64,000 nt of DNA. Source: a virus. Of the stretch, positions 22,960-57,527 are shown piece by piece; within the stretch, counting starts at the first letter, position 1; the number at the start of each line of letters is the position of its first letter. The notes beneath the pieces were generated by a model that searched no databases, was not told the DNA's origin, and saw nothing but the letters and a program-made list of their open reading frames with translations. A program made the position numbers and the translations under genes. Location: positions 1 to 64,000 of the IMG/VR virus record IMGVR_UViG_3300045988_183652; one strand, 5' to 3'.

Positions 22960-23095
22960 AAGACAATCACTGCCCGAAAAGGGAAGTGATTGTCTGAATT
23001 TGTGATGTGACTTGAAAAACGGAGATAAAACTCCTTATAAAAATATCTTCGTAATTATACTATTATACTACCACGTTTCGCTATTTTGTCAACAG
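22960..23095 (-). promoter_or_regulatory. promoter + leader-hairpin cassette M1 (family-1)
   Basis: Minus strand: TTGACA-N16-TAGTATAATAGTATAAT, then GGAGTTTTATCTCC hairpin, then the hairpin GACAATCACTTCCC-ttttc-GGGCAGTGATTGTC + U-rich tract before the RBS. Homologous cassettes are M2-M6. Confidence 0.55.
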
Positions 23096-23107
23096 CAGCA
23101 ACGTAAA

Positions 23108-23140
23108 AAAAGAAGCTCCCGAAGGAGCTTCTTTTGAAAT
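23108..23140 (-). terminator. terminator of operon 2
   Basis: GAAGCTCC-cgaa-GGAGCTTC hairpin with T7 on minus strand. Confidence 0.6.
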
Positions 23141-23159
23141 TTAGTTTTTTATCTTGCTT

Positions 23160-23801
23160 TTAGCATTCCCTTTTAACCATGCGCTCCTGATACTCCTTCA
23201 GAACCCTTTGGCCGTACCCATCAGCGTCGTTGCGATAATCCAAGGAAAACGCTGCGAAGGCGTCTCGCAGTACGGCGGCGCTTCTGGAAATGGTCAGGAG
23301 CAGTTCATCTTCCTGATGGCTCATTGCGGAGAGCGTGTTGTCGAAATCATCATGGTACTGAGCCGTCCAAGCGGTCGTAAATGTACCATCATCATCCCAA
23401 ATCCACAAAGGGTCATTATGCTGCCCTTTTGCCTTGTAGAGTATATCCGTGCAATGCGACACATGGACGATATACTCGCACAGCGCAAAGTACAACTCGT
23501 GGTAGGCTTTGATGGATTTCTGCTTGCTCTCACAGTCGCTGCGGAACAAAATACCGGAAATCAGGAGATGGGCGTAGTTCTGTTCGACGAAGCCGTATAA
23601 CTCAGCCAGTTCGCGCTTCCGCAGAACCAGTTCCGCCGCGTCTTGCGGCAGGTCAGACAGCTTCGGACGAACCTGTAAGGACGCACCCATCCCGACGATT
23701 GCGGCAATGGCTTCAGCCGCTTTCTCATAGCGGTTGATATACAGAATGGTCTCTCTTATCTTCGGTATAACAAAATGGCGAATGTCGGAAGTATCCAGCA
23801 T
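23160..23801 (-). CDS. hypothetical protein
   Basis: Start moved to ATG 23801 (MLDTSD...) with AAAGGAGGG RBS; the track start at 24002 overlaps the upstream gene. Confidence 0.45.
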   Translation of the reverse strand: MLDTSDIRHFVIPKIRETILYINRYEKAAEAIAAIVGMGASLQVRPKLSDLPQDAAELVLRKRELAELYGFVEQNYAHLLISGILFRSDCESKQKSIKAYHELYFALCEYIVHVSHCTDILYKAKGQHNDPLWIWDDDGTFTTAWTAQYHDDFDNTLSAMSHQEDELLLTISRSAAVLRDAFAAFSLDYRNDADGYGQRVLKEYQERMVKREC

Positions 23802-23826
23802 TTTCGTTTGTCCCTCCTTTCGTGGC

Positions 23827-24888
23827 TTAAATGGAGCAAGTAAATGTGTCATTGCAGCCAGACTTTTCCGTCTCTTTTTCCCATGCCTCAGTAATCTTGT
23901 TGCTGGGAGCGCCGGATGCCTTCTTCCATACAATAGTATCACCGCTGACTTCCAGCGCATCATCGCAAAAGACAAGCGAATTAAAGGTATGCTCGTCTTC
24001 ATAGAGTGCCAGATGCATCGGGTTCAGCATGACTGCGCCTTCCGTCAGCAGCATACGGGCCCAGAGCTGGTATTCAAGAGACCAGCGGGACGTTTCCGTC
24101 GGCAGGTCGCCATACAGCTCGTCCAGCTTTCGCAGGATGGAGGCGCAAATCACGCAGCCTGCGGGAGTTCCGTGATGCGTACCGAGATACGGCAGCTTGG
24201 CGAAGAATAGGGGACTCTCAGCATACTCGTCTTCCGCATAGGCGTAAAACGTTAGCTCCATGTCCGCTGCTGCGAAGAACCGGTCGGGAAGGATATCCTT
24301 CACTTTGCAGTTGCTCCAGACAACATCATCCGAAAGGAATCTGAAGCCAAGAGGCTCCGTCCTATCAGGTGTGAGGTACTTCCGTGCCATATGTCGGACG
24401 AGGGCAACGAAACCCAGCTCATGCCGCAGCGTCGGCACATCGTCAAAGATTCTGTGAATGTTTGCCCACAGCTTCTCTTCGCTTCGTTCCACGCACTCGA
24501 AAAAGAGTTTGCAGGACGACCCGTGTGTGAACACGACACTCAGGGTCACGAGCCAAGGTGCGAAATCATCAGGCTTCAGAACATACTCTTTCTGCCCAGT
24601 ACAGGCGACCGGCACAAACCAACCACCCGCACGAGCTTCGCTATACGAAGCGTCCTCCGCAGCATAGGCGGTTGTTCTGAAGGCATCGTCGGTGTCCTTA
24701 TCGGGAATTTCAATGGCATCGCCCTTGCAGATACACTTGAAGGGGACATACATTTCCACCTCTCTAATGCCGTCGCCATCTGTATCATCCGTATCACGGC
24801 AGTAACGCACGATATGGACTAATACGTTCTCGTCGCAATGCAGCTTTCGCTTGTTCGAAATTAGATTATCCATGTTTTCTCCTTTCAA
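23827..24888 (-). CDS. hypothetical protein, paralog 1 of tandem pair
   Basis: 353 aa; shares ELTFYAYAEDEYAESPLFFAKLP...LEYQLWARMLLTEGAVMLNP with the adjacent 344-aa gene. Confidence 0.5.
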   Translation of the reverse strand: MKGENMDNLISNKRKLHCDENVLVHIVRYCRDTDDTDGDGIREVEMYVPFKCICKGDAIEIPDKDTDDAFRTTAYAAEDASYSEARAGGWFVPVACTGQKEYVLKPDDFAPWLVTLSVVFTHGSSCKLFFECVERSEEKLWANIHRIFDDVPTLRHELGFVALVRHMARKYLTPDRTEPLGFRFLSDDVVWSNCKVKDILPDRFFAAADMELTFYAYAEDEYAESPLFFAKLPYLGTHHGTPAGCVICASILRKLDELYGDLPTETSRWSLEYQLWARMLLTEGAVMLNPMHLALYEDEHTFNSLVFCDDALEVSGDTIVWKKASGAPSNKITEAWEKETEKSGCNDTFTCSI

Positions 24889-24890
24889 CG

Positions 24891-25925
24891 TCAGCCAGTT
24901 ACGATGCAGGTAAAAGCCTCATCGCCGGACTCACTCATGTCATTCTCCCACGCCTCGGCGATTACGCTGATAGGTGTTTTGACAGCCTTTGTCCACGCAA
25001 TACCGTCACCGCTGTCTTCCAGCATTTTATTACCGAAAGCCAGCGTTTTGAATTCGTAGGCGCAGTCGGGGAGGTCGAGGTGCTTCGGATTCAGCATGAC
25101 CGCACCTTCTGCCAGCAGCATACGAGCCCAAAGCTGATATTCCAGAGCCCATTTTGTTGTGTCTTCAGGCAGGTCGCCGTACATCTCATCCAGCTTCTGC
25201 AGCAGTTCTGCGATTGCAGCACGTCCCTCAGGCTCGTTGTACCGTTCGCCCAAATCGGGCAGTTTGGCAAAGAACAGAGGAGACGCTGCATACTCGCCGT
25301 CGGAATAGGCGAAGAACGTCAGCTCTATCCCAGAAGAGGCAAGGACCTTTTCTGGAAGGATATCCTTTACATCGCACTTTGCGTGGTTCACACTGTCCGA
25401 GATGAGACGGTATCCGAACTGTTCCGTCCATTCACGGGAGAGTTCCTGCACTGCCATGTCTGCGGCGATAACGGGACGACGCCCACTGTACGTATTTACC
25501 CCATCCTCGAATCTTGTTCGCATATTGCTGATGATGTCTTTGGTGTCGCTGAGAACGCTTTCGATAAGAAGCCGACAGCCGCGCCAATCCTCTTCTTCAG
25601 TGATGAGGAGGGATGTGATATATGGTGCAAAATCGGTGGGATAGAGAATCAGCTCAGTCTCATCACCGTCCGCTGTAGCCTTCACAATCCAACCGCACTC
25701 GTTCTCTTCTCGGCATCTTTCCTCGAAATAAGCGTTTGTGAGGGCGGAAAAGTGCAGCTCGCATCCGTCGTCGCCAAAGACACTCACAGAATCGCCATTA
25801 CGGATTTCCTTGAAAGGAACGAATGTGTCCTCGAAACGGTCGTGCTTGGGGTTTTTGCGGGAGACCTTAACCAGCGTGTTCTCGTCGCAGAAAGCTGCGG
25901 CGGCTCTGATAGATGCATTGTTCAT
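24891..25925 (-). CDS. hypothetical protein, paralog 2 of tandem pair
   Basis: 344 aa; ELTFFAYSDGEYAASPLFFAKLP...LEYQLWARMLLAEGAVMLNP. Confidence 0.5.
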   Translation of the reverse strand: MNNASIRAAAAFCDENTLVKVSRKNPKHDRFEDTFVPFKEIRNGDSVSVFGDDGCELHFSALTNAYFEERCREENECGWIVKATADGDETELILYPTDFAPYITSLLITEEEDWRGCRLLIESVLSDTKDIISNMRTRFEDGVNTYSGRRPVIAADMAVQELSREWTEQFGYRLISDSVNHAKCDVKDILPEKVLASSGIELTFFAYSDGEYAASPLFFAKLPDLGERYNEPEGRAAIAELLQKLDEMYGDLPEDTTKWALEYQLWARMLLAEGAVMLNPKHLDLPDCAYEFKTLAFGNKMLEDSGDGIAWTKAVKTPISVIAEAWENDMSESGDEAFTCIVTG

Positions 25926-25989
25926 AGTTTTCTCCTTTCTTTTTGTGAAAGCAGGGGAGAGGCAGAGTGCCTCTCCCGCTGTCTTTGAT

Positions 25990-26199
25990 TTAACCGGTTA
26001 TGACCGCTACAATAACCAAAACAATGGTGAGCGCAATAGTGCCAAAGGCAGCCGGAAGCATTTCTGGCTGGTCTGATTTTTTTGCGGCTATGACTGAGAC
26101 GACCATTGCGGCGATGATGAGAACGACATAGGCTATAAACAAGGGGTTCGTCAGCATTTTGAACACGTCTTTCTCACCTCCGTTAATACCACCGAACAA
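25990..26199 (-). CDS. small 2-TM membrane protein
   Basis: 69 aa, hydrophobic. Confidence 0.35.
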   Translation of the reverse strand: MFGGINGGEKDVFKMLTNPLFIAYVVLIIAAMVVSVIAAKKSDQPEMLPAAFGTIALTIVLVIVAVITG

Positions 26200-26392
26200 G
26201 TGCGAACAGTTCCACCATAATAACGCCCACAGAAACGCTGCAGACGATTGGCGGCAAGAGGTCCTGTGTGTCCAGTCTCCTTATGCCAAGGAATATGCCG
26301 CACATCACGAGAATGGTCAGAGCGAAGTAAAGAATAATCGACATTAGAGTTACTCCACCTCGCTCTTTTCCAGCTCGGAAAGGTTGTAGCAT
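26183..26392 (-). CDS. small 2-TM membrane protein
   Basis: 69 aa, hydrophobic; overlaps its neighbour by 17 nt. Confidence 0.35.
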   Translation of the reverse strand: MLQPFRAGKERGGVTLMSIILYFALTILVMCGIFLGIRRLDTQDLLPPIVCSVSVGVIMVELFALVRWY

Positions 26393-26991
26393 TCAAATCC
26401 GCAGGTCATGCAGTGATACGGACCGTAGGGGTCAGACGACTCGTAAATGTTAGATTCGATTTCGTCGTTGATATTTCCGAGGAAATCTCCCGTTTCGATG
26501 TCAACCAACACATCAATGTGGAGAACCTGATGACCAGAGAAAGATACGCCACCACAGTTGGGGCAGCAGCGGGTATACACCTTCTGCTCCCGCTCTGATG
26601 TACCAGATTCGATGTCTTCAAACGCTTCGGCGAGTGTGAGAAGCATCTCGTTGATTTCCTTGGCGTCCTCGACAAGCACTGACAGCTTCGGAACGCCTGA
26701 CGTGCCCTTTACGGAAGCCTCCGCAAACAGAGCGACGTGCTCGTCAACGTCGAAGTCCTCGTAGACGCGGCGCACAGCAGCGGCCACTCCATCGCCGAAA
26801 TCATCATCGGCGTACAGGTCAAAGGAGTAGTCCTCGCCGGCAGGCGACCCCTGTCTGAACGTGAACACACCACAGACCTTGTCTTCGTCGATGACCCAGC
26901 CCAAATCTTCTGCCTTTTCGCGGTAGTTGACCGGAATCAGGTCAGGAACGCTGGTCTGGACCTCCGCAGCGTTTTTTTGGATATTCTCCAT
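26350..26991 (-). CDS. hypothetical protein with C-terminal zinc ribbon (CCPNCGG...CMTCGF)
   Basis: 213-aa ORF. Confidence 0.45.
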   Translation of the reverse strand: MENIQKNAAEVQTSVPDLIPVNYREKAEDLGWVIDEDKVCGVFTFRQGSPAGEDYSFDLYADDDFGDGVAAAVRRVYEDFDVDEHVALFAEASVKGTSGVPKLSVLVEDAKEINEMLLTLAEAFEDIESGTSEREQKVYTRCCPNCGGVSFSGHQVLHIDVLVDIETGDFLGNINDEIESNIYESSDPYGPYHCMTCGFECYNLSELEKSEVE

Positions 26992-27015
26992 GATTTTTCT
27001 CCTTTCTTTTTTCGT

Positions 27016-27885
27016 TTAGGCCTCGGTGCCGAACACCTTTTTGCAGATAGAGTGGATAGCCACGAACTGTTCCTGAAGCTGTGCCGGCACGAGAGAGAAG
27101 GAGAGTCCTGCGTCGCGCCATACACTATGTCCCGCAAAGGCTTTGTCCCACAGTTCTCCGCGTTCATGCTGTGCCTCCATCAGCCGTTCGTTCTGCTCTT
27201 CCTCTGTGCGCCCAGAAACAATATATTCCTGTGTGAACGCATCAAAAGACGAAGTGCTCATTTCCGTCTGGTCGGTGTACTCAAAGCGGGGATATGTGGA
27301 GTCGATGAAACGGGCTGTCTCTCTGGTGAGATTGAACCCTTTCATGTAGGTACTGCCATTATCGCCCTTGAGGAACAGCAATGATGTCTGCCAATCACGG
27401 GAGACAATTTCGTAGACCTCAGTGATGACGGCAAGCAGATTTTTCTCCTGCTCTACTGTCAATGAAATCTTCCGTTTCTGTGCCTCATTCTGCAGAAGCT
27501 CTTCCGCAGAGCTTCTGACGCTATCCGTCATCGTGAAAGACGGAATCCACTCGTACATCAAAACGCACTTGTGAACGACGTTCGCGGCGATTGACGCAAA
27601 AACAGGCCTGAGTTCCTCGACATTCTCTACAGACTTTTTGGCGAAGATAATGGCGAGCTGGCAGAAGTCAAGTGAGCTGTAGACGGCATCCACGAAGGAT
27701 TTTTTCTGTACTCCTCGAATCTCGTTGCCGAGGTTGACCAACTCTCCAATGTCGGTAGAATTGATGCGCCAAGCGTCAAAGATTTTCGTGCTCATTTCAA
27801 ACACCCGCTTTCTTTCAGCATATCCATGACCTTCTCCAGCACAGGCAGGGGGGCGTTGAAGTTGAAGTTTCTCACCGCCCTGCAA
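27016..27885 (-). CDS. hypothetical protein
   Basis: 289-aa ORF. Confidence 0.45.
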   Translation of the reverse strand: MQGGEKLQLQRPPACAGEGHGYAERKRVFEMSTKIFDAWRINSTDIGELVNLGNEIRGVQKKSFVDAVYSSLDFCQLAIIFAKKSVENVEELRPVFASIAANVVHKCVLMYEWIPSFTMTDSVRSSAEELLQNEAQKRKISLTVEQEKNLLAVITEVYEIVSRDWQTSLLFLKGDNGSTYMKGFNLTRETARFIDSTYPRFEYTDQTEMSTSSFDAFTQEYIVSGRTEEEQNERLMEAQHERGELWDKAFAGHSVWRDAGLSFSLVPAQLQEQFVAIHSICKKVFGTEA

Positions 27886-28157
27886 AGCGTCACACGCAGT
27901 TCCGCTTGCCGAAGGTAATCCTTGGCGGCCTGCTCTGTCTGATACAGCCGGTAGTCCATGCAGTACGTGGTGTTGAGCTGGAAGTAGAGGTTTCGGTTTG
28001 CGTCCTCAAGCGGTGCCTTGTAGTAACGCCGACCGTTATCGTCCGTCAGCCACTTGGTTCCGACCTTGACTGTGACCTCATCCACCACTTTTCCACGCTG
28101 CCTCTCGGCATTGCTGCCGATAACCGTTACGCGGTAAAGTCTCATTTCAGCGGCCAT
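27792..28157 (-). CDS. hypothetical protein
   Basis: 121-aa ORF; the 5' end may be shorter because it overlaps the upstream gene. Confidence 0.35.
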   Translation of the reverse strand: MAAEMRLYRVTVIGSNAERQRGKVVDEVTVKVGTKWLTDDNGRRYYKAPLEDANRNLYFQLNTTYCMDYRLYQTEQAAKDYLRQAELRVTLCRAVRNFNFNAPLPVLEKVMDMLKESGCLK

Positions 28158-28356
28158 TGTTCTTACTCCTTTCTTCGTCTGTCAGCCCGCCATCCACAGC
28201 CATGTCCATCAGTGTATTGATGACGCTGGTGAGACGCTGTGCGAACGGGGTGTAGGGATTCGACAACTCACTGCGGCGCTCCATCAGAATCGCCATAGCA
28301 AACTTAGCGTCATTGACGCTCTTCAGCTCTTCGATTGTCCAGCGATGCTTACTCAT
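28147..28356 (-). CDS. small hypothetical protein
   Basis: 69 aa. Confidence 0.35.
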   Translation of the reverse strand: MSKHRWTIEELKSVNDAKFAMAILMERRSELSNPYTPFAQRLTSVINTLMDMAVDGGLTDEERSKNNGR

Positions 28357-28661
28357 GCTCTTGCACCCCCTTCCATAACAGGCTGGTCGGCATAAACCGA
28401 CTGCAACGCGAATTCCATAGCGGAGATGACCTGTGCGATTGAGGGCGTAGGCTTACTCAAATCGCGGGCATATCCGCACCTGTCGTTCAGGTGGGTAGTC
28501 AGGGTGTCCCTGACCTTTCCCTGTACTCCCGTTATTTCCAGCAGCCGCCTCAGAGCGTCGTTGACGTCTTTTGCGGGCAACTTCTTGCGGGGGTGGAACA
28601 ACAACTCGTTCCGATACTGAGACAATGTGCTGTCAACAAAGTGCAGCGAAGATGTATCCAT
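28353..28661 (-). CDS. hypothetical protein
   Basis: 102 aa; first gene after cassette M2. Confidence 0.4.
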   Translation of the reverse strand: MDTSSLHFVDSTLSQYRNELLFHPRKKLPAKDVNDALRRLLEITGVQGKVRDTLTTHLNDRCGYARDLSKPTPSIAQVISAMEFALQSVYADQPVMEGGARA

Positions 28662-28889
28662 TTTATTCTCCTTTCTCTAAATCTGCTTGTAAGGCCCAAG
28701 TGTGATAGACAGGTTGTAGATATAATTACCACAACGCACACATTCGTCGTTCTTTCCCCACAAGCCGCTTGCTTTCATACCGCGCACGCTGCCTGTATAA
28801 TGGATAGACGGGTGTGTATCGCACTCGTGCTGGGTAAGCTCCTTTTGTTTCATGCGTTTTCTCCTTTCGTTTTTATTTGTTCTGAATAT

Positions 28890-29030
28890 ATAAAAAGACA
28901 GTCGTTCCCAAATGAGAACAACTGTCTTGAATATGATGATGTGACTGAAAACGGAGATAAATCTCCTTATAAAAATATCTTCGTAATTATACTACTATAC
29001 TACCACAATTCTTTATAATGTCAACGGAAA
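28890..29030 (-). promoter_or_regulatory. promoter + leader-hairpin cassette M2
   Basis: Minus strand: TTGACATTATAAAGAATTGTGGTAGTATAGTAGTATAATTACG; GGAGATTTATCTCC; AAGACAGTTGTTCTC-atttg-GGAACGACTGTCTT + UUUUUAUAUAU. Confidence 0.55.
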
Positions 29031-29039
29031 CGGTACAAA

Positions 29040-29075
29040 AAAAAGAAGCCCCCGAAAGAGCTTCTTTTTAAGTTA
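29040..29075. terminator. bidirectional terminator
   Basis: GAAGCCCCC-gaaa-GAGCTTC hairpin flanked by A8/T5. Confidence 0.55.
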
Positions 29076-32822: not shown

Positions 32823-32884
32823 ATTTTTCTCCTTTCTCCCAGCCTGTGATAAGGTCTTACGGGAACAAAAATGTAGTGAATATA

Positions 32885-33025
32885 TAAAAAGACAGTCGCT
32901 CTCAAAAGAGAACAACTGTCTTGAATGTGATGATGTGACTGAAAACGGAGACAAAGCTCCTTATAAAAATATCTTCGTAATTATACTACTATACTACCAC
33001 ATTTCCTTATAATGTCAACGGTTTC
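32885..33025 (-). promoter_or_regulatory. promoter + leader-hairpin cassette M3
   Basis: TTGACA...TAGTATAGTAGTATAATTACG; GGAGCTTTGTCTCC; AAGACAGTTGTTCTC-ttttg-AGAGCGACTGTCTT + U-tract. Confidence 0.55.
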
Positions 33026-33036
33026 GACGCAAAAGA

Positions 33037-33068
33037 AAAGAGCCGCATAGCGGCTCTTTTTTTTAGGC
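33037..33068. terminator. bidirectional terminator
   Basis: AGAGCCGC-ata-GCGGCTCT + T8. Confidence 0.6.
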
Positions 33069-33075
33069 TTGTTGT

Positions 33076-34035
33076 TCACGCTTCTACGTAAACTGGTTTG
33101 AGATACTGTGCGCTGAGAAATTTGCCTCGCAAGGAAGAAATCTTTGCCTCAGCGTCTTTCTCACTGATAAACCTCTGAGCATCATCCACGGAGGACGTGT
33201 ACTGGAGGTTGTTCTTCACGGATTTCTTCACATACTTCCCTGCGTATGCCTTTTCCGTACACATAACGACATAGGGCCGAGGCGCCGTCATCTTGCGCGT
33301 TACGGTCTTGAACTCAAGTCCCATTACGCTGATAACCTCTCCCATTGCTGCCGTAGCTGCTTCCGCAGACGGGTAGTGAATGGCATCTCTGACATCCTTT
33401 GTGAAATGCACAGTTATTCTTCCATTCACATTATCAAACGCACGCACATAGCCCGCGTTGCGCTTTTGAACTACAAGCGGACCCTTTACATCCCGCGCTC
33501 TGGCAGGTCGCAGGCGCTCGCCGCGCTGTGTTCCGCTGAACGACATGAAGATGTAGTGGTCCTTGTGTTCTTTTACCAGTTCCCGTGCCTCATCCAGCCA
33601 GACTTCCAGCTCATCCGTTGTTCTGACATACCTCCACAGCAGATGGTCGCCGGACGTATAGGGCATCAGCCCTACATTCAGGTCGTTGACGCCGGGATTG
33701 GCGGCGAGGATGTCCTCCAGCGTGGCGGCATCCTTTGCGGCGCGAGCAAACCATTTCCGTGCCTGAGAGCAAGTGACCCACTTGCTGTTCATCTTCCAGC
33801 ACTCATCATCGGTGTCGGGGAAGGTGGTATTCACCTTCGCCACAAATTCGTCCTCAGGAAGTTCCAGAAGATTGATTCCTCCCAGCAAGAACCAGTGGCG
33901 CTCGCGAACCTCTCGCGGCTTGAAATTCCTGTCGTAGATAAACTCGGAGCAGTTGTTGCTGCCACCCAAGGCAAGGGGAATGATACCACGAGTTGTCTTG
34001 ATGAAAGAGCGGGCATCAATGATAGTGTATCCCAT
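33076..34035 (-). CDS. hypothetical protein
   Basis: 319 aa. Confidence 0.45.
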   Translation of the reverse strand: MGYTIIDARSFIKTTRGIIPLALGGSNNCSEFIYDRNFKPREVRERHWFLLGGINLLELPEDEFVAKVNTTFPDTDDECWKMNSKWVTCSQARKWFARAAKDAATLEDILAANPGVNDLNVGLMPYTSGDHLLWRYVRTTDELEVWLDEARELVKEHKDHYIFMSFSGTQRGERLRPARARDVKGPLVVQKRNAGYVRAFDNVNGRITVHFTKDVRDAIHYPSAEAATAAMGEVISVMGLEFKTVTRKMTAPRPYVVMCTEKAYAGKYVKKSVKNNLQYTSSVDDAQRFISEKDAEAKISSLRGKFLSAQYLKPVYVEA

Positions 34036-34056
34036 TTTTACATCTCCTTTCTTCCG

Positions 34057-34326
34057 TTACATCTCGCCATCCTCGGCAGCGGTTATAATGCCGAATCTGA
34101 GGTTGTTGTTGATGTCGTAGATACTTAATCCGCTATCAAAGTCCTTGCGGAGCTGCGTCGCAGCGGCCTCTACGGAGTCTTCGCCGTACTCAAACGTCTC
34201 GGACTCGACGCAGGCCGCCACGAGTTCCTTCAGCTTTTCGCGGGAAGTCGTCGCAGAAACCAGACGCATGGAGTCTGTTGCTTTCCAAGCGTCACAGGCA
34301 AACACGATGAAGATAGGATTACTCAT
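34057..34326 (-). CDS. small hypothetical protein
   Basis: Start set to ATG 34326 (MSNPIFIVFACDAW...) with AAAGGAG RBS. Confidence 0.4.
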   Translation of the reverse strand: MSNPIFIVFACDAWKATDSMRLVSATTSREKLKELVAACVESETFEYGEDSVEAAATQLRKDFDSGLSIYDINNNLRFGIITAAEDGEM

Positions 34327-34897
34327 TTTCGGCTTGCTCCTTTCTTCTTCCAACGGTGGCTGCGGGGTACGGTGTGGCCCGCTTGTTGTTGCTGTCCATG
34401 ATTCGCATAACATGGACAAGCATCTCGGAATATGCCCTGTGCATGGTTTCATACCGCGCACGCCATGTATTATCATCATTGTCGTTCACGCGAGCACTCA
34501 GCCCCATGCTGTAGTACAGCGCGGCGTCGATGTCTACCAGCTCCGCTTCAGTCAGGTGGCAGATATAGGCTCCCAGCTCATTGACAGAAACTGCCATCGG
34601 CTGCTCGCACAGTGCTGTGCTTGGGCGGCTCGTGCTCGTGATGAGTACATGGGAGGGCTGCTGCATCTTTGGAGATGATGTCGTAAATACGACCTCCACT
34701 ACACTGCTGTAGCGGTTCAGGTCATCCGAAGATACAACGATTGCGGGACGATGCCCTCTGATAACAGAGCTATTGGAAGGATGTCCGTCTTTATCGCGGA
34801 ACTGACTTCCTTCCGGGGCCCAAGGGGAAAAGATTTCGATTTCTTTCGCATTGACCCAAAATACATCGCCCCTGCGGATATTTCCATTTCTACCCAT
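34319..34897 (-). CDS. MazF/PemK-like endoribonuclease toxin with ~75-aa C-terminal extension
   Basis: RRGDVFWVN...GHRPAIVVSSDDLNRYSSVVEVVFTTS matches the PemK/MazF fold signature. Confidence 0.5.
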   Translation of the reverse strand: MGRNGNIRRGDVFWVNAKEIEIFSPWAPEGSQFRDKDGHPSNSSVIRGHRPAIVVSSDDLNRYSSVVEVVFTTSSPKMQQPSHVLITSTSRPSTALCEQPMAVSVNELGAYICHLTEAELVDIDAALYYSMGLSARVNDNDDNTWRARYETMHRAYSEMLVHVMRIMDSNNKRATPYPAATVGRRKEQAENE

Positions 34898-35105
34898 AGA
34901 TTCTTGTCTCCTTTCCTTCAGAATTGGTTACACACGACGGAATGCCGAAAAAAGACAGAACCGCTTTAAGCGGCTCTGTCTCCATGCAGTCGATATGACA
35001 CTGCTTGTTTTCGTAGGGTGCCTCGACATATTCTTCGCCAACCTCAATGGGTTCGTGGCAAATGCAGCATTCGCCGGCGTAACGAATTTTCTTTTTTACT
35101 TTCAC
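34890..35105 (-). CDS. small zinc-ribbon protein (candidate cognate antitoxin/partner)
   Basis: 71 aa, CCICHEP...CHIDC; overlaps the MazF-like start by 8 nt. Confidence 0.35.
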   Translation of the reverse strand: MKVKKKIRYAGECCICHEPIEVGEEYVEAPYENKQCHIDCMETEPLKAVLSFFGIPSCVTNSEGKETRIYG

Positions 35106-35323
35106 AATGAATTTACTCCTTTCTGCCGTTGGCCTATTGTTGCGATTGCTTGCCGGCGCCGTCTTTCACAGAGTTTTCGCTGCTCTTCGATAGCTTCGCG
35201 AGCCTCCGCAATACACTGCTTCGCACGCCTATCCTGTTCAGAAGAGAAGGAAGCGTAGCGTTCGGAGTAGACGGAATCCATACGCTCGGCTCTCTCAATT
35301 AACTCATACAGCGGTGTAGACAT
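35102..35323 (-). CDS. small hypothetical protein
   Basis: 73 aa, coiled-coil-like. Confidence 0.35.
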   Translation of the reverse strand: MSTPLYELIERAERMDSVYSERYASFSSEQDRRAKQCIAEAREAIEEQRKLCERRRRQAIATIGQRQKGVNSL

Positions 35324-35339
35324 AGCTTCTCCTCCTCGT

Positions 35340-35875: not shown

Positions 35876-35919
35876 TATGTTTTCTCCTTTCTTATTGTGT
35901 TTGTAATGTAAAAAAATAT

Positions 35920-36058
35920 ATAAAAAGACAGCTATCCCTGTTTTGGGATAACTGTCTTGAATACTTGGTGTGACTGGAAGCGGAGATAAGTCTCCTTATA
36001 AAAATATCTTCGTAATTATACTATTATACTACCACAATTATTTATAATGTCAACAATA
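35920..36058 (-). promoter_or_regulatory. promoter + leader-hairpin cassette M4
   Basis: TTGACATTATAAATAATTGTGGTAGTATAATAGTATAATTACG; GGAGACTTATCTCC; AAGACAGTTATCCC-aaaac-AGGGATAGCTGTCTT + U-tract. Confidence 0.55.
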
Positions 36059-36062
36059 GCAG

Positions 36063-45016: not shown

Positions 45017-45522
45017 TGTATATGTCTCAGAAAGAGTTCAATGCAATGATGAAGAAAAACCCCCGCCTCCGTGTTCACGGTGCAAACAACACACGCGAAC
45101 ATCGTTCCAAGGCGAACAAGGCGGCAAAATATAGAAACGTAAAGGTCTACGAGTACGCCGATGGGCTGTCCTTTTTCGGTAAGCCCCGCAATAGTGGTGA
45201 ACTCCCTATCGCTGTCTATGACAGTAAGAAGGAGTACCACCGCTGGAAAGAGCTTCAGATTCTGGAGCGCGGCGGACATATCCACGACCTTCGCCGGCAG
45301 GTGCCTTTGACCATCATTACCGAGTTCGAGTATCGTGGTCAGAAGGTCTCCGGTATTACTTACAAAGCCGACGCCGTCTATGTGCGCGACGGCAAGTGTG
45401 TGGTAGAGGACGTGAAGCCCTTCGATACCACAACGCAGAAGTATCGAACTACAAAGGATTTCAACCTCAAGTGGAAGCTGCTCAAGGCTGAATATCCTGA
45501 GTGGAGCTTCGAAATTTTTTAG
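45016..45522 (+). CDS. hypothetical protein
   Basis: Start at TAATG overlap (MYMSQKEFNAMMKKNP...); GAGGAGG upstream. Confidence 0.45.
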   Translation: MYMSQKEFNAMMKKNPRLRVHGANNTREHRSKANKAAKYRNVKVYEYADGLSFFGKPRNSGELPIAVYDSKKEYHRWKELQILERGGHIHDLRRQVPLTIITEFEYRGQKVSGITYKADAVYVRDGKCVVEDVKPFDTTTQKYRTTKDFNLKWKLLKAEYPEWSFEIF

Positions 45523-45544
45523 CGTAACAGGTTTCAAGAACAAC

Positions 45545-45678
45545 GAGTACGGACGGTATAACCGGAATTAACGCCTGTGGAGATGCATTGTCGTCGCGGA
45601 AGCAGGAATACTCTGTTGGCTGGTAGTCACGTGAGAGGTGGCACCAGCGCTTTGGGGAACTGAATATATCCTGTGCCG
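45545..45678 (+). ncRNA. conserved array-leader element, copy E
   Basis: GAGTACGGACGGTATAACCGGAATTAACGCCTGTGGAGATGCATTGTCGTCGCGGAAGCAGGAATACTCTGTTGGCTGG... Confidence 0.5.
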
Positions 45679-46118
45679 GGTGTATGAGGGCCTGAAATGA
45701 CAGGGGGTATACCCTAACAGCGCAGTAACGTTTAGTGAAGTACGGGTGTATAGAGTCCTGAAACAGCAGGGTTGTATACCATGGAAATGTTCGGCTGACG
45801 GTGCAACACAAGACCACGTGTATACACCACCCAGAAATAACAGGGTTGTATACCCCTTGTTATATGAAAACACCATGGAAAACAGGTATACACCACCCCG
45901 GAATAACAGGGTTGTATACCATGGAGGATGGGCGCTTCACCTTGCAGGTGGGCGTATAAAGCCCTGAAATATCAGGGTTGTATACCTGACTCGTGATGAT
46001 ATTCTCACCGCAGTACGGTATATAGAACCCCGAAATAGCATGGTTGTATACCCTCTCGACTGCAATGAAAAAGCACTACAAAGGTATATAGAGCCCTGAA
46101 ATAACAGTGTTGTATACC
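45679..46118 (+). CRISPR. CRISPR-like array E (7 degenerate 33-37-nt repeats, 6 spacers of 30-38 nt)
   Basis: Repeats start at ~45679, 45745, 45818, 45885, 45954, 46017 and 46083. All end in GTTGTATACC (or GGGTATACCC) and begin with GGTrTAyA. Spacers are unique. Confidence 0.5.
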
Positions 46119-46238
46119 CGCAATACGCCACAGTCCATGTAATACAGGAGGCGGTATTTTCCTCGCTTACTTCGACCTTGTGCAGTAAGAGATTGCACCG
46201 GTCGCTTGCTTGCTCCGCAAATTTGTTCGCTCGAAGAA

Positions 46239-46318
46239 CTTGACAAAATATCGAAATATAGTAGTATAGAATTATAAGGAAGGACAGTCTAACACAGACT
46301 GTCCTTCCGCTTTTTTAT
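46239..46318 (+). promoter_or_regulatory. promoter + leader-hairpin cassette M6 (plus-strand version)
   Basis: TTGACA-aaatatcgaaatatag-TAGTATAGAATTATAA, then GGAAGGACAGTCT-aacac-AGACTGTCCTTCC + GCTTTTTT, an intrinsic-terminator-like hairpin a few nt after the predicted TSS. Confidence 0.55.
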
Positions 46319-46341: not shown

Positions 46342-47139
46342 TTGGAAAGCACAAGCAAAAAACAAGTAAAATGGGGGATTTTCAAGACTGCACTCTTTAC
46401 GTTCCTGTTCGTCGCCGTATCCGCTTTCTACTTTCTCTCCGCCAACGTGACACTCGCACAGGCCGAAGAGCACTCAAACCACGAGGTGCCTCCTGCTGGA
46501 GCAGCGGTTGCCACCCAGATGGACGACACCAAGCTGTCGGAAAAAGCGCAGCAAGATGTTCTGGAACTGAAGGAAGGAGTTCTCGACCCTCTTTCCGACA
46601 TCACAGAAGCAGAGAACTCTGAAGATGACCCCGACGCCGTGGAGGAAGTACAGGAAGTCGTTCCGACAGTCTGTTCCTACTGCGGCTCTGAGAACCATAG
46701 TTCCTCAATCTGTGCAAAGAGGTCTATCGCCAATGGTGCCTATGGGCGCTGGGCGATTCCGTCTGTTGGCTGTAATGTAGCGGCCTACTCGTGTAACTGG
46801 GATGCAGACCAATCCTATATTCAGGAAATTACTGACAGCTCCGACAGTGCAGCTTTTTTGACTTGCGGCGGCGTTGGTGTTCTTGCAGACCACAATAACC
46901 AAGGTTTCTTGGGACTTTCCAATGTTTCTGTTGGCACGAAAGCCTACATGGACTTTGGTGATGGCGCAACTTACTACGAGTGCTATCAGGTTGAATACGG
47001 ACACAATACCGGCGAAAAGATGCTCGATGGAAATGGAAACATAATGAGCTACAGTAACTATTCTTCCGGCACTGTGATTTGTTACACCTGCCTTGACCAC
47101 TGGACCAACATTTACATCACTTACTGGACGCCGGTATAA
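46342..47139 (+). CDS. secreted/membrane-anchored CCHC zinc-knuckle protein, paralog 1
   Basis: TTG start with GAAAGGGGA RBS. N-terminal signal/TM segment, acidic linker, CSYCGSENHSSSIC (CX2CX4HX4C), then a conserved C-terminal domain (ADHNNQGF...YxCxxxxYGHN...YTCxDHW). Confidence 0.55.
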   Translation: MESTSKKQVKWGIFKTALFTFLFVAVSAFYFLSANVTLAQAEEHSNHEVPPAGAAVATQMDDTKLSEKAQQDVLELKEGVLDPLSDITEAENSEDDPDAVEEVQEVVPTVCSYCGSENHSSSICAKRSIANGAYGRWAIPSVGCNVAAYSCNWDADQSYIQEITDSSDSAAFLTCGGVGVLADHNNQGFLGLSNVSVGTKAYMDFGDGATYYECYQVEYGHNTGEKMLDGNGNIMSYSNYSSGTVICYTCLDHWTNIYITYWTPV

Positions 47140-47180
47140 GTGCCAGACACCCACTCTCTACTCTAAGAAAGGACGAAACC

Positions 47181-47981
47181 ATGAAAACGAAATTCAAAAT
47201 CCCTCGGTGGGCACTCTTCACCGTTATCATTCTGGCCTTTATCGGTGGTCTCTTTGCCATCTCCATGCTGCCTGCTTTCGCATCACGTGAAAGCTCTCCG
47301 CCTTTGGCAGTAGCAGAAGCCGCGCAGAACGAGGAAAAGGACGCAAATTCTGATGCTCAGACTCCCGAAGCAGACAAGACGACAGATGAACAGGGAAGTG
47401 CTGAAGCCCCCGCAGAGGCCGCGTCTCAGGCAGACGACGCCGTCGTTGTCGAAGAGACTCCCGCCGAAGCGCCTGTTCAGGAAACCCCGACTACCTGTTC
47501 CTACTGCGGCAGTGCAGAACACACCAGAGACTACTGCGCCGTTCGTGCCGTTGACAATGGTGCCGTTGGCCGGCTCCGGATTCCCTCTGTCGGTGTTGAC
47601 GTGGCTGTCTACGACGTTACTTGGTACTCTCTGCAGCATACCACCGAGAGTGACAACTACACGCAGGCCGTTACAGATGCATGGGACAGCGCAGCACAAA
47701 TCGTCTATCTCGGCCAGACCGTTATTGGCGACCATAATAATCAGGGCTTCTCCACCATCAACAACTGCTCCGAAGGCACCTACGCTTACATCGACATGGG
47801 CGACTCTGTCCTGACCTATGTTTGCACCGGCATCCAGCATGGTCGTAACCCCGGTGGCTATCTCACCGGTGCCGATGGCGATAGCATCTATACCTCTTAC
47901 TTCAATCCCAACGGTCTGACGCTGTATACCTGTCTCGACCACAACTTCAATGTTGCCCTCGTGACATTCCAGCCTGCTTAA
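47181..47981 (+). CDS. secreted CCHC zinc-knuckle protein, paralog 2
   Basis: Signal/TM anchor, A/E-rich linker, CSYCGSAEHTRDYC, GDHNNQGF...YTCLDHN. Confidence 0.55.
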   Translation: MKTKFKIPRWALFTVIILAFIGGLFAISMLPAFASRESSPPLAVAEAAQNEEKDANSDAQTPEADKTTDEQGSAEAPAEAASQADDAVVVEETPAEAPVQETPTTCSYCGSAEHTRDYCAVRAVDNGAVGRLRIPSVGVDVAVYDVTWYSLQHTTESDNYTQAVTDAWDSAAQIVYLGQTVIGDHNNQGFSTINNCSEGTYAYIDMGDSVLTYVCTGIQHGRNPGGYLTGADGDSIYTSYFNPNGLTLYTCLDHNFNVALVTFQPA

Positions 47982-47997
47982 AGGGGGTGCAGCTTTA

Positions 47998-48771
47998 ATG
48001 AAAACAAAGAAGATTTCCCGCCGCGCTGTTACGCTGGCTGCCTTTTTGCTGGTAAGCGCATCATCTTTACATATGGCTTGTGCAGAGGCTGCGGTGCCGT
48101 TCGATTACTTTACTGATGACCTCTCTGTGTCCGCTGCCGCCGTTGCTGAGGAAGATAAATACCTGCCTCCTGAGTGGTTCACAAAAGAAAATGCTGTAAG
48201 TGAAGTAGACTCAGACACGCCTCCGGTGGAGACTCCTACCCCTGCGGGCGAATCCTCTGTGGCGACCCCCGTGCCTGAGCCCGCACCGGAAACCGCAGCA
48301 GCCTGCAGCTATTGCGGCAGCGCAGGGCACTCGCAGAATAGGTGTGCCGTTTACGCTGTCGAACAGCGAGGTGCCGTTGGGCGTTGGTCTATCCCTTCTA
48401 TTGGAATAGATGTCGCTTGCTTCACCTATGTGCTTGGAAGCGATTCCTTCGAGTACGGACAGGCAATTTGTGACGCTGCCGATAGTGCCGGCTACAGTGC
48501 GTATGGGAGCCAGTATCTCATTGCAGACCACAACTATCAGGGCTTTTCTGCCATAGCCAACTGCGCGGTCGGTGCGGTGGGATATATGGATTACGGAAAC
48601 AGTCGAACAGAATATGTTTGTACTGGGGTGGAGTATGGGCACAATGAAGGCACGGAACTGACTGATAATGACGGAAACGATGTTGCGTACAACAACAGTG
48701 GAGGAATTACCCTTTACACCTGTTACAACGGCTGGCAAAACGTCGTCATAGCGTATTTTACTCCGGTTTAA
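47998..48771 (+). CDS. secreted CCHC zinc-knuckle protein, paralog 3
   Basis: Signal peptide, CSYCGSAGHSQNRC, ADHNYQGF...YTCYNGW. Confidence 0.55.
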   Translation: MKTKKISRRAVTLAAFLLVSASSLHMACAEAAVPFDYFTDDLSVSAAAVAEEDKYLPPEWFTKENAVSEVDSDTPPVETPTPAGESSVATPVPEPAPETAAACSYCGSAGHSQNRCAVYAVEQRGAVGRWSIPSIGIDVACFTYVLGSDSFEYGQAICDAADSAGYSAYGSQYLIADHNYQGFSAIANCAVGAVGYMDYGNSRTEYVCTGVEYGHNEGTELTDNDGNDVAYNNSGGITLYTCYNGWQNVVIAYFTPV

Positions 48772-49053: not shown

Positions 49054-49157
49054 TGGGCATTTTTCCCAAGAACTTACGACTTGTCATTTTTTTATGTGGG
49101 TTGTATAATATAGGTGAACGTCTTTGCAGAGGGCGTAACTTATAGGAAAGGGGACTT

Positions 49158-55832: not shown

Positions 55833-55851
55833 ACCTTAAAACTCCTTTCCT

Positions 55852-56304
55852 TCAAACGGCGAATGTGTCGAGAACGCTTTTGTTCAAGCTAACCTTGACA
55901 AGATGCGCTCGCAGTGCCTCCTTAATGCGCGGCCACTCACGCAGCAGCGCCATACCCGCTTCAACGTAGGTATCGAAAGAGGAGCCGCTGTCGTTGTCCT
56001 TTTTGACAATGGCGAGCCCAAGGTATCCGGTTCGACCACTGACGGATTTATCCGTGACCGTGATATGGTATTTGTTCTCAATCCCATTTTTATCACCGTA
56101 GTACATCTTCTCTTCGCCGAAATCTACCGTCACGCTTGTGCCGCACATATGGGGGCAAATCTCAGACACAATGTAGTCTTCGATTTTTTGAAGATTACTT
56201 CTCAGTTTCTGATGTTCTTCACTTGTAAGTCTCATATCCATTTCTCCTTTCTTAAAAAAGCATTTAGGCGAAAAGTGGGGTCTCGATACGATTCGAGACC
56301 TCAC
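55852..56304 (-). CDS. hypothetical protein
   Basis: 150 aa. Confidence 0.4.
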   Translation of the reverse strand: MRSRIVSRPHFSPKCFFKKGEMDMRLTSEEHQKLRSNLQKIEDYIVSEICPHMCGTSVTVDFGEEKMYYGDKNGIENKYHITVTDKSVSGRTGYLGLAIVKKDNDSGSSFDTYVEAGMALLREWPRIKEALRAHLVKVSLNKSVLDTFAV

Positions 56305-56347
56305 CCTTCTCTTGCCTTACAGAAATTTTGCGGGGAAATCAGATGGC

Positions 56348-57331
56348 TTAGAACGGCAGGTCGCTGTCATCCACATCGTTCAGCTCATAGAAGCCGTTGG
56401 GAGCGGGCTGGCCGTAGGTCATGTTCGGCTGACCCTGCTGCTGAGGCATGGGGGCGGGCTGACCCTGCTGAGGCATAGCCTGCTGGGGGGGATAGCCGCC
56501 CTGAGGAGCCTGCTGCGGCGCGGACTGCGGATACGCAGGGGCACCATTGGCAGCGGGGGCGCCGAAGGAAGACTGGTAGCCCTGAGGAGCCTGCTGCTGG
56601 GCATTGGGGTCCATGCAGGAGCCGCTCCGGTTGCGGATGAAGTGGAAGTCGCTGACAGAGATGCTCAGGCTTGTGCCGGGAGTACCATCCTTGCGCGTAT
56701 ACTGCTGAATCTTCGCGGAACCGGACAGCCACAGCACAGGATTGGCGTAGTTGCCGTTTTCCGCCGTCACCATACGCATGAACCGCTCGGCGGTCTTCTC
56801 CCACATGGTGCAGTTGGCCCACACGACGTTCTTCTCGTTCTCCACGAGAGTCCCCTCGCCAAACGTATAGTCCAGATTGCTCTTCCTGTTCTGGATGGGG
56901 ATGGAGAAGTTGACGTAGGCCTTGCCCTCCGCCGTGTGCTTCAGACCGGAGCAGCGAGTGACAGCACCCTCAATATCGGTATAGATATAGGGCTCGCCGT
57001 TGCTGTTCATGGCATTGATGAAGTGAGCGGTCGTGTAGAACTTCCGGCCCTGCTGCTGACCGTTCTGCGGTGCAGCCGGCTGCTGAGGCGCAGGAACGGG
57101 CTGACCCTGCTGCTGGGGATAGACTCCCTGCTGGTGATAACCCTGCATCTGCTGCTGAGGGTAGCCATAGGCGGGCTGACCCTGAGGCGCACCGTACTGG
57201 GGCTGTGCCGGAGGGTACTGGCCCTGCGCCTGAGGATACCCATACTGAGGAGCCTGCTGCATACCACCGTTGTTGTTCTGATAAGACATAATTTTCTCCT
57301 TTCTTCCGCACGAAGGCGGACCAAATCCCAA
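56348..57331 (-). CDS. ssb: single-stranded DNA-binding protein with Q/P/G/Y-rich low-complexity N- and C-terminal regions
   Basis: Central OB-fold-like core and a C-terminal acidic tail ...DVDDSDLPF (the SSB DDDIPF-type tip). The N-terminal ~90 aa and a ~70-aa pre-tail region are Q/P/G/Y repeats. First gene after cassette M5. Confidence 0.6.
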   Translation of the reverse strand: MGFGPPSCGRKEKIMSYQNNNGGMQQAPQYGYPQAQGQYPPAQPQYGAPQGQPAYGYPQQQMQGYHQQGVYPQQQGQPVPAPQQPAAPQNGQQQGRKFYTTAHFINAMNSNGEPYIYTDIEGAVTRCSGLKHTAEGKAYVNFSIPIQNRKSNLDYTFGEGTLVENEKNVVWANCTMWEKTAERFMRMVTAENGNYANPVLWLSGSAKIQQYTRKDGTPGTSLSISVSDFHFIRNRSGSCMDPNAQQQAPQGYQSSFGAPAANGAPAYPQSAPQQAPQGGYPPQQAMPQQGQPAPMPQQQGQPNMTYGQPAPNGFYELNDVDDSDLPF

Positions 57332-57389
57332 AAATGTTTTGTTTTTTGTGAGGTTGAGATTTGGTTATTGATGTAGTTTTTTTATATTA

Positions 57390-57527
57390 AAAAAGACAGC
57401 TATCCTTCAAAAAGGATAACTGTCTTTGATAAATGATGGTGTCTTGAAACGGAGATAAATCTCCTTATAAAAATATCTTCGTAATTATACTACTATACTA
57501 CCACGTTTCATTATTTTGTCAACAGGA
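57390..57527 (-). promoter_or_regulatory. promoter + leader-hairpin cassette M5
   Basis: TTGACAAAATAATGAAACGTGGTAGTATAGTAGTATAATTACG; GGAGATTTATCTCC; AAGACAGTTATCC-tttttgaa-GGATAGCTGTCTT + UUUUUAAUAUA. Confidence 0.55.

Follow-up and report, generated by a model that had tools for sequence, protein, structure and literature searches.

A repeated promoter-leader cassette with a predicted terminator precedes early or accessory operons of an uncultured gut phage

We analyzed a stretch of 64,000 nucleotides of viral DNA (positions 1 to 64,000 of the IMG/VR record IMGVR_UViG_3300045988_183652; hereafter, the window), in which a composite cassette made of a promoter and a transcribed leader is repeated in front of successive operons. 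A 41-mer from the cassette, GTAGTATARTAGTATAATTACGAAGATATTTTTATAAGGAG, occurs in five exact copies without a mismatch, while none is expected (100 shuffles), and a repeat search of the window clusters the five minus-strand cassettes as a single 173-nt repeat family (Table 1). The operon behind cassette 1 encodes AAA (MoxR-like), VWA, and HD proteins, as assigned with Pfam and PHROGs. The operons behind cassettes 2 to 4 consist almost entirely of ORFans, together with MazF-like and PHROG-874 proteins, and that behind cassette 5 encodes a single-stranded DNA-binding protein (SSB), ORFans, and an HD phosphohydrolase. Most genes behind the cassettes have no Pfam or PHROG function.

The preliminary description of this DNA had counted six near-identical cassettes, each preceded by a bidirectional terminator. 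Five of the six, all on the minus strand, indeed share the identical 41-nt core, while the plus-strand copy turned out to be a remnant. This degenerate cassette 6 keeps only TTGACA-16-TAGTAT-AGAAT-TATAAG, shows more than eight mismatches to the core, and is devoid of the leader part from ACGAAG to hairpin 1. Because its upstream flank matches that of a full cassette in related phages and two TTATAA repeats border the missing piece, we read it as a deletion derivative, which looks like the product of a deletion between these two repeats. Bidirectional operon-end terminators were found upstream of cassettes 1 to 4 but are not evident ahead of copies 5 and 6.

On the transcribed strand, every full copy is built in the same way: TTGACA, a 16-nt stretch with TRTG-G at its end, TAGTAT, 5 nt, TATAAT, and TTACGAAGATATTTTTATAAGGAG, followed by the palindrome GGAG-N6-CTCC (hairpin 1), GUUUUC, a spacer of ~25 nt, and hairpin 2. 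The latter is a 14-16-bp stem with a conserved base (AGACAG/CUGUCU), which runs into U5-6 AUAUAU. The ribosome-binding site (RBS) and the first gene lie 30-100 nt past the U-run, in the same orientation, in every copy. The promoter scores 10 of the 12 consensus positions in addition to its TG extension, and the leader of ~105 nt carries an invariant segment, TTACGAAG..TATAAGGAG, after the second hexamer. The cassette is a strong host sigma-A-type promoter joined to a conserved non-coding leader. The geometry of TTGACA and a 16-nt spacer was described correctly, with the spacer leading into a TG-extended TAGTAT. In contrast, the proposed tandem TAGTATA is not a conserved feature, as the 5 nt between the hexamers vary in relatives (AGTAG, AATAG, ATTAG, AGAAT, or AGAAG). 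What is fixed instead is the second hexamer TATAAT with its 5-nt spacing, and TAGTAT-5 nt-TATAAT is invariant across the two phage clades described below.

The TG-extended -10 has a perfect -35 as its partner, and we infer that transcription starts 7 nt past this -10, inside the second hexamer. Both hairpins are located downstream of this predicted start and not upstream of it, in agreement with the initial view of them as part of the leader RNA. The second hexamer was considered as the true -10 and rejected, because the best -35 available to it matches only 2-3 of 6 positions. A leader peptide was likewise rejected: the leaders of clades 1 and 2 contain no ATG, GTG, or TTG, and the ATGAAG in the leader of a distant relative (L166, see below) yields only open reading frames (ORFs) of 5-15 amino acids that lack an RBS and are not conserved. 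A perfect Shine-Dalgarno sequence, AAGGAG, is invariant at ~+22, with no ATG, GTG, or TTG after it. The 5' untranslated region (5' UTR) contains a third conserved element, GTTCCCGTAAGNCCTTATCACAGGCTGGGAGAAAGGAGAAAA, which is present in about half of the cassette types of related phages and can fold a small CCC..GGG / CCU..AGG hairpin beside the RBS.

Covariation of the hairpins was assessed on 46 distinct cassette sequences. Folds of the predicted transcripts have minimum free energies of -26 to -29 kcal/mol (z = -4.7 to -5.9). In hairpin 2, 93% of cells are paired, as compared to 46-64% when the partner strand is slid, and five pairs show compensatory double changes alongside many G·U pairs; RNAalifold recovers this hairpin independently. 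Because G·U pairs would be A·C mismatches on the other strand, the structure belongs to the sense RNA. The U-run likewise follows hairpin 2 on the sense side only, in all five copies. Thus, a check for covariation suggested at the outset was positive for hairpin 2, which also scores as an intrinsic terminator. Of the two hairpins originally proposed, both exist and the second has the conserved stem expected of it, while hairpin 1 has merely four invariant pairs (GGAG..CTCC), its inner two pairs being broken in 14/46 and 4/46 sequences. At the gathering score, Rfam detects only tRNAs in the window and the leader matches no family; a permissive Rfam scan of cassette 2 gave nothing near any family threshold.

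Table 1. Positions of the cassettes and associated features in the window.
Feature	Position	Strand	Details
Cassette 1	22951-23092	-	-35 23092-23087; -10 TAGTAT 23070-23065; second hexamer TATAAT 23059-23054; predicted +1 ~23058; hairpin 1 23034-23021; hairpin 2 22995-22961, then U-run; first gene AAA protein 22888-21023
Cassette 2	28885-29024	-	-35 29024-29019; -10 29002-28997; second hexamer 28991-28986; predicted +1 ~28990; hairpin 1 28966-28953; hairpin 2 28928-28895, then U-run; first gene 28853-28677
Cassette 3	32879-33018	-	-35 33018-33013; -10 32996-32991; second hexamer 32985-32980; hairpin 1 32960-32947; hairpin 2 32922-32889, then U-run; first gene 32822-32070
Cassette 4	35915-36053	-	-35 36053-36048; -10 36031-36026; second hexamer 36020-36015; hairpin 1 35995-35982; hairpin 2 35958-35925, then U-run; first gene 35875-35609
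Cassette 5	57383-57522	-	-35 57522-57517; -10 57500-57495; second hexamer 57489-57484; hairpin 1 57464-57451; hairpin 2 ~57427-57392, then U-run; first gene SSB 57289-56348
Degenerate cassette 6	46240-46316	+	TTGACA 46240-46245; TAGTAT 46262-46267; TATAAG 46273-46278; 13-bp hairpin 46278-46308 directly after TATAAG; T6 46311-46316
Third conserved 5' UTR element GTTCCCGTAAGNCCTTATCACAGGCTGGGAGAAAGGAGAAAA (41 nt)	22893-22933	-	between hairpin 2 and start codon, cassette 1
Second copy of GTTCCCGTAAGNCCTTATCACAGGCTGGGAGAAAGGAGAAAA	32825-32865		directly before start codon of cassette 3 first gene
Bidirectional operon-end terminator	23108-23135		upstream of cassette 1
Equivalent bidirectional terminators	29037-29069, 33036-33060, 36064-36098		upstream of cassettes 2, 3, 4
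Nuclease-dead TnpB-like (TldR-like) gene	41890-42948	+	aligned to ISDra2 TnpB residues 7-326
Guide-RNA-like scaffold	43004-43143	+	
Terminal degenerate hairpin repeat	43144-43177	+	
Conserved terminal guide ATTCGTAATTATAGTTCT	43178-43195	+	after degenerate last repeat
Two more scaffold-plus-array units	44153-44460, 45539-46121	+	
Further scaffold-plus-array unit	12337-12650		after tRNA-Ser
Second promoter family	1463-1498, 9880-9915, 40619-40654, 49079-49114	+	
Second promoter family	40432-40461	-	

The window has no near relatives in cultured phages, plasmids, or a one-genome-per-species reference set, and tblastn with the VWA protein retrieved distant fragments from uncultured faecal phages alone; judged by these searches, the source is not a known phage, plasmid, or reference prophage. 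A 32-nt core of the cassette was, however, found in 82 loci of IMG/VR contigs of 9-172 kb, which we refer to as clade 1. Large contigs of this clade carry 9-11 copies, on one strand throughout and spread over ~65 kb. In 715 kb of related loci, we counted 114 exact cores, 3 with one or two mismatches, and 0 with three to eight. A second clade (contigs of 105-192 kb, in which the AAA protein after cassette 1 is 85% identical) has its own fixed version, with 87 copies extracted from 66 loci, or ~11-13 per genome. In this version, AGAAT or AGAAG separates the hexamers, GAAGA is replaced by GAAGC, GGAG is preceded by one additional A, and the loop is 1 nt shorter. The two clades together have 9-13 co-oriented copies per genome. 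The fixation of a separate version in either clade indicates concerted evolution of the copies within a lineage. Among clade-1 paralogues, stable differences are found in the -35/-10 spacer, in the flanks, and in the upper part of the hairpin 2 stem, whereas positions -12 to +40 are invariant. An invariant core between a variable spacer and a variable upper stem argues for selection on the core and not for gene conversion alone.

Relatives whose AAA protein is 36-45% identical have no sequence similarity to the cassette but a comparable order of elements. Locus L166, an AT-rich 144-kb phage (AAA protein 37% identical), has cassettes at its positions 5437, 10949, and 13077. Its promoter is composed of a consensus -35, 16 nt, a TG-extended -10, 5 nt, a second -10-like hexamer (TATAAG, TATAAA, or TAGATA, 5 nt after TATAAT), 1-2 nt, and AYGAAG. 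The leader then contains hairpin 1 with an (A/G)GAG..CTC(T/C) base and a U-run, and hairpin 2 with an ACAG..CTGT base, followed by TATATA and the RBS. In two other relatives, L171 and L172, the promoter and two hairpins with U-runs are retained and a GAAG/GAAT motif follows the -10 at 14 nt (L171) or 9 nt (L172), but no clear second hexamer is seen 5 nt past the -10. The G of GAAG is likewise 14-15 nt beyond the -10 in clade 1 and L166.

The counterpart of hairpin 1 is GGAGA-TTA-TCTCC in clade 2, GGGGATC-CATA-GATACCC in a third clade (69% identity), AGAGATA..TATCTCT with U4 in L172, AAGATAG..CTATCTT with U5 in L171, and a long AGAG..CTCT stem with U7 in L166; an exact search with the clade-3 leader returned no match. 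Which hairpin is long and terminator-grade varies by clade, but at least one hairpin with a U-run always stands between promoter and gene. Because this holds for every relative, promoter-proximal termination is likely to be functional, and we consider this the strongest argument for it. That the order of elements is preserved and the sequence is not also indicates functional selection. A comparable layout, with TTGACG-17-TATAAT followed by a hairpin and U6 before the gene, is found even on a Lachnospiraceae chromosome, at a homologue of the AAA-VWA operon (L173 4770-5000, ~34% identity, flanked by housekeeping genes).

The window also encodes a TnpB-like protein and several guide-RNA-like units (Table 1). 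The protein has Ser at the position of D191 of ISDra2 TnpB and lacks the C-terminal Zn-finger/RuvC-III part, while E278 is kept; the protein is therefore nuclease-dead, as TldR repressors are. Related phages have a paralogue with 52% identity to it (L055 7642-8577, L178 2451-3386, and L155 5782-6717), and the DNA downstream encodes, when read by eye, an apparently intact C-terminal Zn-finger and an HDRDINAAINI RuvC-III motif. The scaffold of this paralogue shares ACGCCTGTGGAGA..GAAGCAGGAAT with that of the dead copy, and the TldR-like gene is likely to have arisen from such a paralogue. Four or five copies of the ~130-nt scaffold lie within 41890-46121 and 12337-12830. Behind each scaffold lies a CRISPR-like array, in which hairpin repeats of 36 nt (GGTATACAccaCCCnGAAATAaCAGGGttGTATACC) alternate with spacers mostly ~30 nt long; inside the window, the repeats are degenerate but keep the hairpin. 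The final array (45539-46121) ends 118 nt upstream of cassette 6. The array repeat is confined to the two phage clades, and the succession of tldR, scaffold, repeat, and guide is found in at least 10 related contigs. Phages with 98-99% identical tldR genes differ in their spacers, with 0, 1, or 2 extra units before the common terminal repeat. Rfam has no family for the scaffold.

The terminal guide matches the cassette itself. Its bases 43179-43190 are the exact reverse complement of positions -1 to +11 of the cassettes of the source phage (12/12), and the guide matches the common clade-2 cassette at 16/17 and the clade-2 variant of L193 at 17/17 positions (-1 to +16). Independently, the first array spacer of the clade-2 locus L123 corresponds to the sense strand just past hairpin 1, with 18/20 identities at 27 or more sites. 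The scores of both were reached by 0/300 shuffles. The sequences preceding the two targets are ATATC/ATAGC and ATCTC. As far as we have seen, the cassettes appear to be the sole phage sequence matched by the dead-TnpB guides of this group. We rejected the idea that the arrays generally target the cassette, as only two spacer families, out of 142 unique spacers, match it above shuffled controls. An insertion sequence (IS) signature was also rejected, since no remnant of the other cassette half exists upstream of tldR. The 10 nt that an alternative terminal spacer (type Y) shares with a second promoter family (described below) are at chance level, and an exact search with one spacer gave no match. 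In addition, a spacer of the clade-2 phage L176 matches a non-array site in the clade-1 contig L030 (12112-12141) at 28/30; this site overlaps, on the opposite strand, a promoter-like TTGACA-17-TGcTACCAT, which hints that arrays target promoters of related phages.

Taken together, the source is best described, from its sequence, as an uncultured gut phage that starts many early or accessory operons with the same promoter-leader-terminator cassette, and the cassettes probably both gate transcription and serve as crossover points for the swapping of operons. The deep conservation of the promoter-leader layout across clades and relatives makes attenuation or antitermination control plausible, although no antiterminator was found. 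Specifically, we give about an even chance to a model in which the strong promoter and the terminator-ending leader gate 9-13 operons as one regulon through conditional read-through. Polymerase halted at hairpin 2 and its U-run, a predicted terminator in the sense direction only, would produce a short leader RNA, so that expression of the operon would require read-through. The latter would be conditional on a factor acting on the conserved start of the transcript or on promoter-proximal DNA, and a single regulon would thereby comprise all 9-13 co-oriented early or accessory operons. In addition, the invariant promoter-proximal sequence matched by dead-TnpB guides could allow RNA-guided repression of the regulon, either that of the phage itself or that of a competitor.

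Several observations weigh against this model. The antitermination architecture proposed in the preliminary description holds insofar as a transcribed, conserved, terminator-ending leader stands behind a strong promoter; neither an antiterminator nor a conserved alternative helix was found. Among the window ORFs scanned with Pfam and PHROGs, none contains a Q-, N-, NusG/LoaP-, sigma-, or RNA-binding antiterminator domain. This absence is weak evidence, as most ORFs are unannotatable and a novel protein family is conceivable. Of the candidate regulators named at the outset, the 'XRE-HTH' protein (37266-38234) gave no helix-turn-helix (HTH) match, and an HTH protein is encoded at 4548-5258. RNAalifold revealed no conserved antiterminator helix competing with hairpin 2, and within a clade the 46 sequences provide no covariation for or against pairing in hairpin 1. 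The base of hairpin 2 is A/U-rich, and termination, as estimated from sequence, may therefore be partial and constitutive. The operons, judged by their genes, encode early or accessory functions and do not form a single late operon. As to the guides, only two spacer families, out of 142 unique spacers, match the cassette, the clade-2 terminal spacers and the type-Y terminal spacer match it at shuffle level, and the source phage's own cassettes match the guide over 12 nt alone.

The closest analogies to this form of control are found in lambdoid phages. At lambda PR', a -10-like pause element lies just past the promoter's own -10, and Q binds in the -35/-10 spacer. The cassette resembles the PR'/Q/tR' system (PMC9191641, PMC9388147) in its strong promoter with a -10-like hexamer right after the -10, where sigma-dependent pausing of the kind used at PR' for Q loading (PMC9191641) is predicted, and in its short transcript, predicted to end at an intrinsic terminator unless polymerase is modified. 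In contrast to that system, there are many copies per genome rather than one, the genes are early or accessory rather than late, neither a Q homologue among the scanned window ORFs nor a recognizable Q-binding element was found, and the -35/-10 spacer is the variable part in clade 1. One or two promoter-proximal transcribed hairpins ahead of terminators, in more than one operon, also recall lambda N/nut and HK022 put; however, the cassette has no boxA/boxB-like sequence and no Rfam match, and its second hairpin is itself the predicted terminator.

The guide matches raise the alternative that RNA-guided repression is the main control. In this scenario, which we regard as possible but rather doubtful, TldR with the terminal guide binds -1 to +16 of every cassette and silences the regulon. 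This could serve as a temporal shut-off, establish a carrier state, or silence a co-infecting relative, and recognition and escape could drive the invariance of the core and its clade-wide changes. TldRs are promoter-targeting repressors, some of them phage-encoded (Wiegand et al., bioRxiv 10.1101/2023.11.30.569447; Xiao et al. 2026), and those of Enterococcus act at promoters with 9-11-nt guides (bioRxiv 10.1101/2023.11.30.569447). As at the known target sites in the fliC and oppA promoters, the phage encodes a nuclease-dead TnpB homologue with an adjacent scaffold RNA gene and a short putative guide complementary to a promoter-proximal site. Unlike there, the predicted target of binding would be a promoter family of 9-13 phage copies and not one host gene, and the scaffold is followed by CRISPR-like hairpin-repeat arrays, the spacers of which differ between near-identical phages.

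The dead-TnpB diagnosis, its recurrence with scaffold, repeat, and guide in related contigs, and guide-cassette matches far above the shuffled controls are consistent with this alternative, as are the second, independent spacer on the clade-2 leader and the clade-2 spacer with 28/30 identities to a clade-1 promoter-like site. Yet, about half of the clade-1 contigs have the type-Y array end, devoid of a cassette-matching guide, and the terminal spacers of clade 2 are not cassette-like. The match to own cassettes shrinks further, from 12 to 11 nt, in the variants of L188 and L190, and an IS that once inserted beside a cassette could have left the guide behind. Moreover, a 17-nt target explains neither the conservation of the leader to +60 nor the conserved terminator. 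Both layers might also be combined: the core would be the address of an RNA-guided switch acting, through one conserved guide of arrays whose other spacers turn over, on all 9-13 promoters, own or of a co-infecting phage, and the terminator, read through with the help of an antitermination factor not yet recognized, would form the second layer. In that case, the concerted changes that the cassette shows across a clade would be the trace of an arms race of guide against target. We offer this combination tentatively and think it unlikely as it stands.

The cassettes also bear traces of recombination. Locus L053 (contig 182106) aligns to positions 21385-29027 and 32877-39327 of the window, with ~145 bp of a cassette shared by both alignments. 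Because the alignments meet there, the ~3.85 kb between cassettes 2 and 3, that is, the whole of operon 3, is missing from this locus. The cassette at the junction is chimeric, with a 5' part of the cassette-3 type and a 3' part of the cassette-2 type, and other paralogues, too, show mosaic cassettes with swapped halves. Near-identity over ~140 bp would make the cassettes sites of homologous recombination, through which whole operons could be inserted, deleted, or swapped, and the same process would homogenize the copies within a lineage. Such elements have a precedent in the PeSLs of T4-type phages (Arbiol et al. 2010, PMC2839356; Comeau et al. 2014, PMC4122927), ~100-bp composite motifs of a sigma-70 promoter and a terminating stem-loop, which lie beside ORFans and recombine (PMC2839356). 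Like PeSLs, the cassettes are composites of ~100-140 bp with a consensus host promoter and a stem-loop/terminator, occur in many copies before ORFan or accessory genes, and recombine with loss or gain of the genes they flank, here operon 3 in L053. In a PeSL, however, the stem-loop is located before or at the promoter and stops transcription arriving from upstream, while the conserved hairpins of the cassettes lie at +25 to +100 of the sense RNA and the terminators ahead of the cassettes are distinct elements outside the conserved core. The copies are also much more alike (41-85 nt invariant), they stand before operons of several genes, and the host, by promoter and RBS type, is a Firmicute and not a Gram-negative bacterium. 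We conclude that the cassettes probably act as PeSL-like recombination modules.

In an alternative explanation, the cassette is a mobile, constitutive, leaky attenuator and insulator, which has no dedicated factor and whose identity is kept by gene conversion at the crossover sites. The leaky terminator would tone down a very strong promoter and back up the upstream terminator. The loss of operon 3 with a chimeric junction, the mosaic halves among paralogues, the clade-specific homogenized versions, the lack of a detectable antiterminator, and the PeSL precedent all agree with it. Gene conversion alone should, however, even out the whole cassette, yet paralogues keep stable differences in the -35/-10 spacer and in the upper hairpin 2 stem, and distant relatives keep the second hexamer, YGAAG at a fixed distance, and two hairpins in the same order without keeping their sequence. 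We therefore consider that this explanation is unlikely to account for the cassette, although it deserves to be taken seriously.

The invariant AAGGAG at ~+22, after which no start codon follows, could instead mark an element of RNA stability or processing. Early RNAs of Bacillus phage SP82 carry conserved RNase III sites and a polypurine 5' stabilizer. By analogy, AAGGAG, which looks unpaired, could be a ribosome-binding 5' stabilizer (STAB-SD or SP82-type) and/or hairpin 2 an RNase III site whose cleavage yields a protective end, the U-run being incidental. We find this improbable, because GGAG pairs with CUCC in hairpin 1, clade 3 has GGGGATC..GATACCC in its place, and the hairpin with its U-run is kept in every clade, even with unrelated stems. 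Slightly less credible still is the notion that the terminated ~105-nt leader is itself the product, an abundant early multi-copy small RNA that might, for example, titrate an RNA-binding protein or nuclease of the host as a decoy, with the downstream genes expressed through leakage only. A strong promoter, an efficient-looking terminator, an invariant 5' half with a variable 3' hairpin, and 9-13 copies per genome would suit such an RNA, but every copy directly precedes a co-oriented operon with an RBS 30-100 nt past the U-run, the leader sequence is not conserved in distant relatives, and it has no Rfam match. Finally, a DNA operator for a conventional phage repressor, at the palindrome GGAGAT-TT-ATCTCC (+25 to +38) or the invariant +1 to +24, is very unlikely: GGAG..CTCC is invariant with variation limited to the center of the palindrome, as in dimer operators, and the HTH protein at 4548-5258 is encoded nearby, but operators are usually longer than a single half-turn palindrome of 4+4 bp, and relatives have in its place a long hairpin with a U-run behind it, as would be expected of a structure acting in RNA.

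This phage group would provide a clear case, outside T4-like phages, of a genome built from exchangeable operons on one promoter-leader module. Promoter-proximal terminators kept over deep divergence would imply control of elongation in large Firmicute-type gut phages, exerted without a known factor. The link to dead TnpB suggests that RNA-guided factors could control a whole viral regulon, or sabotage that of a rival, via one repeated target. The cassette may also find practical use as a compact, portable unit of a strong promoter and an attenuator.

Further features of the window accompany these elements. A tRNA-Ser gene (12243-12330) ends 7-15 nt before a scaffold begins, which suggests that the two might be co-transcribed and that tRNA processing sets the 5' end of the scaffold. 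A palindrome, GTGTGCAATGATTGCACAC, precedes the scaffold at 43004, and the near-identical GTGTGCAATGATTGCATAC precedes a partial scaffold at 12707. A second promoter family, ACTTGACAttATTTTATGTTCGTGyTAaTAT, has five copies with a conserved spacer and no leader terminator (Table 1); it heads units with topoisomerase, nuclease/flotillin, RecG, tRNA, and recombinase genes, and the copies at 40461 (-) and 40619 (+) are divergent. Between these divergent promoters and the tldR-like gene lie four tRNA genes (Glu-CTC, Thr-CGT, Thr-TGT, and Gly-TCC; 40960-41500), of which the two for Thr are duplicates with 83% identity. Operon 2 contains adjacent paralogous genes of 348 and 344 amino acids (23827-25925; 71-77% DNA identity), with no match in Pfam or PHROGs. 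The SSB of operon 5 (56348-57289) has long Q/P/G-rich repeats on either side of its OB fold and a canonical acidic tail, DDSDLPF. Last, cassette 6 is followed by three tandem paralogous genes (46342-48771), the products of which have an N-terminal signal or transmembrane segment and a CSYCGS..H motif; Pfam gave no match for the first one, and a C-terminal TLYTC-like motif recalls the active site of sortases.

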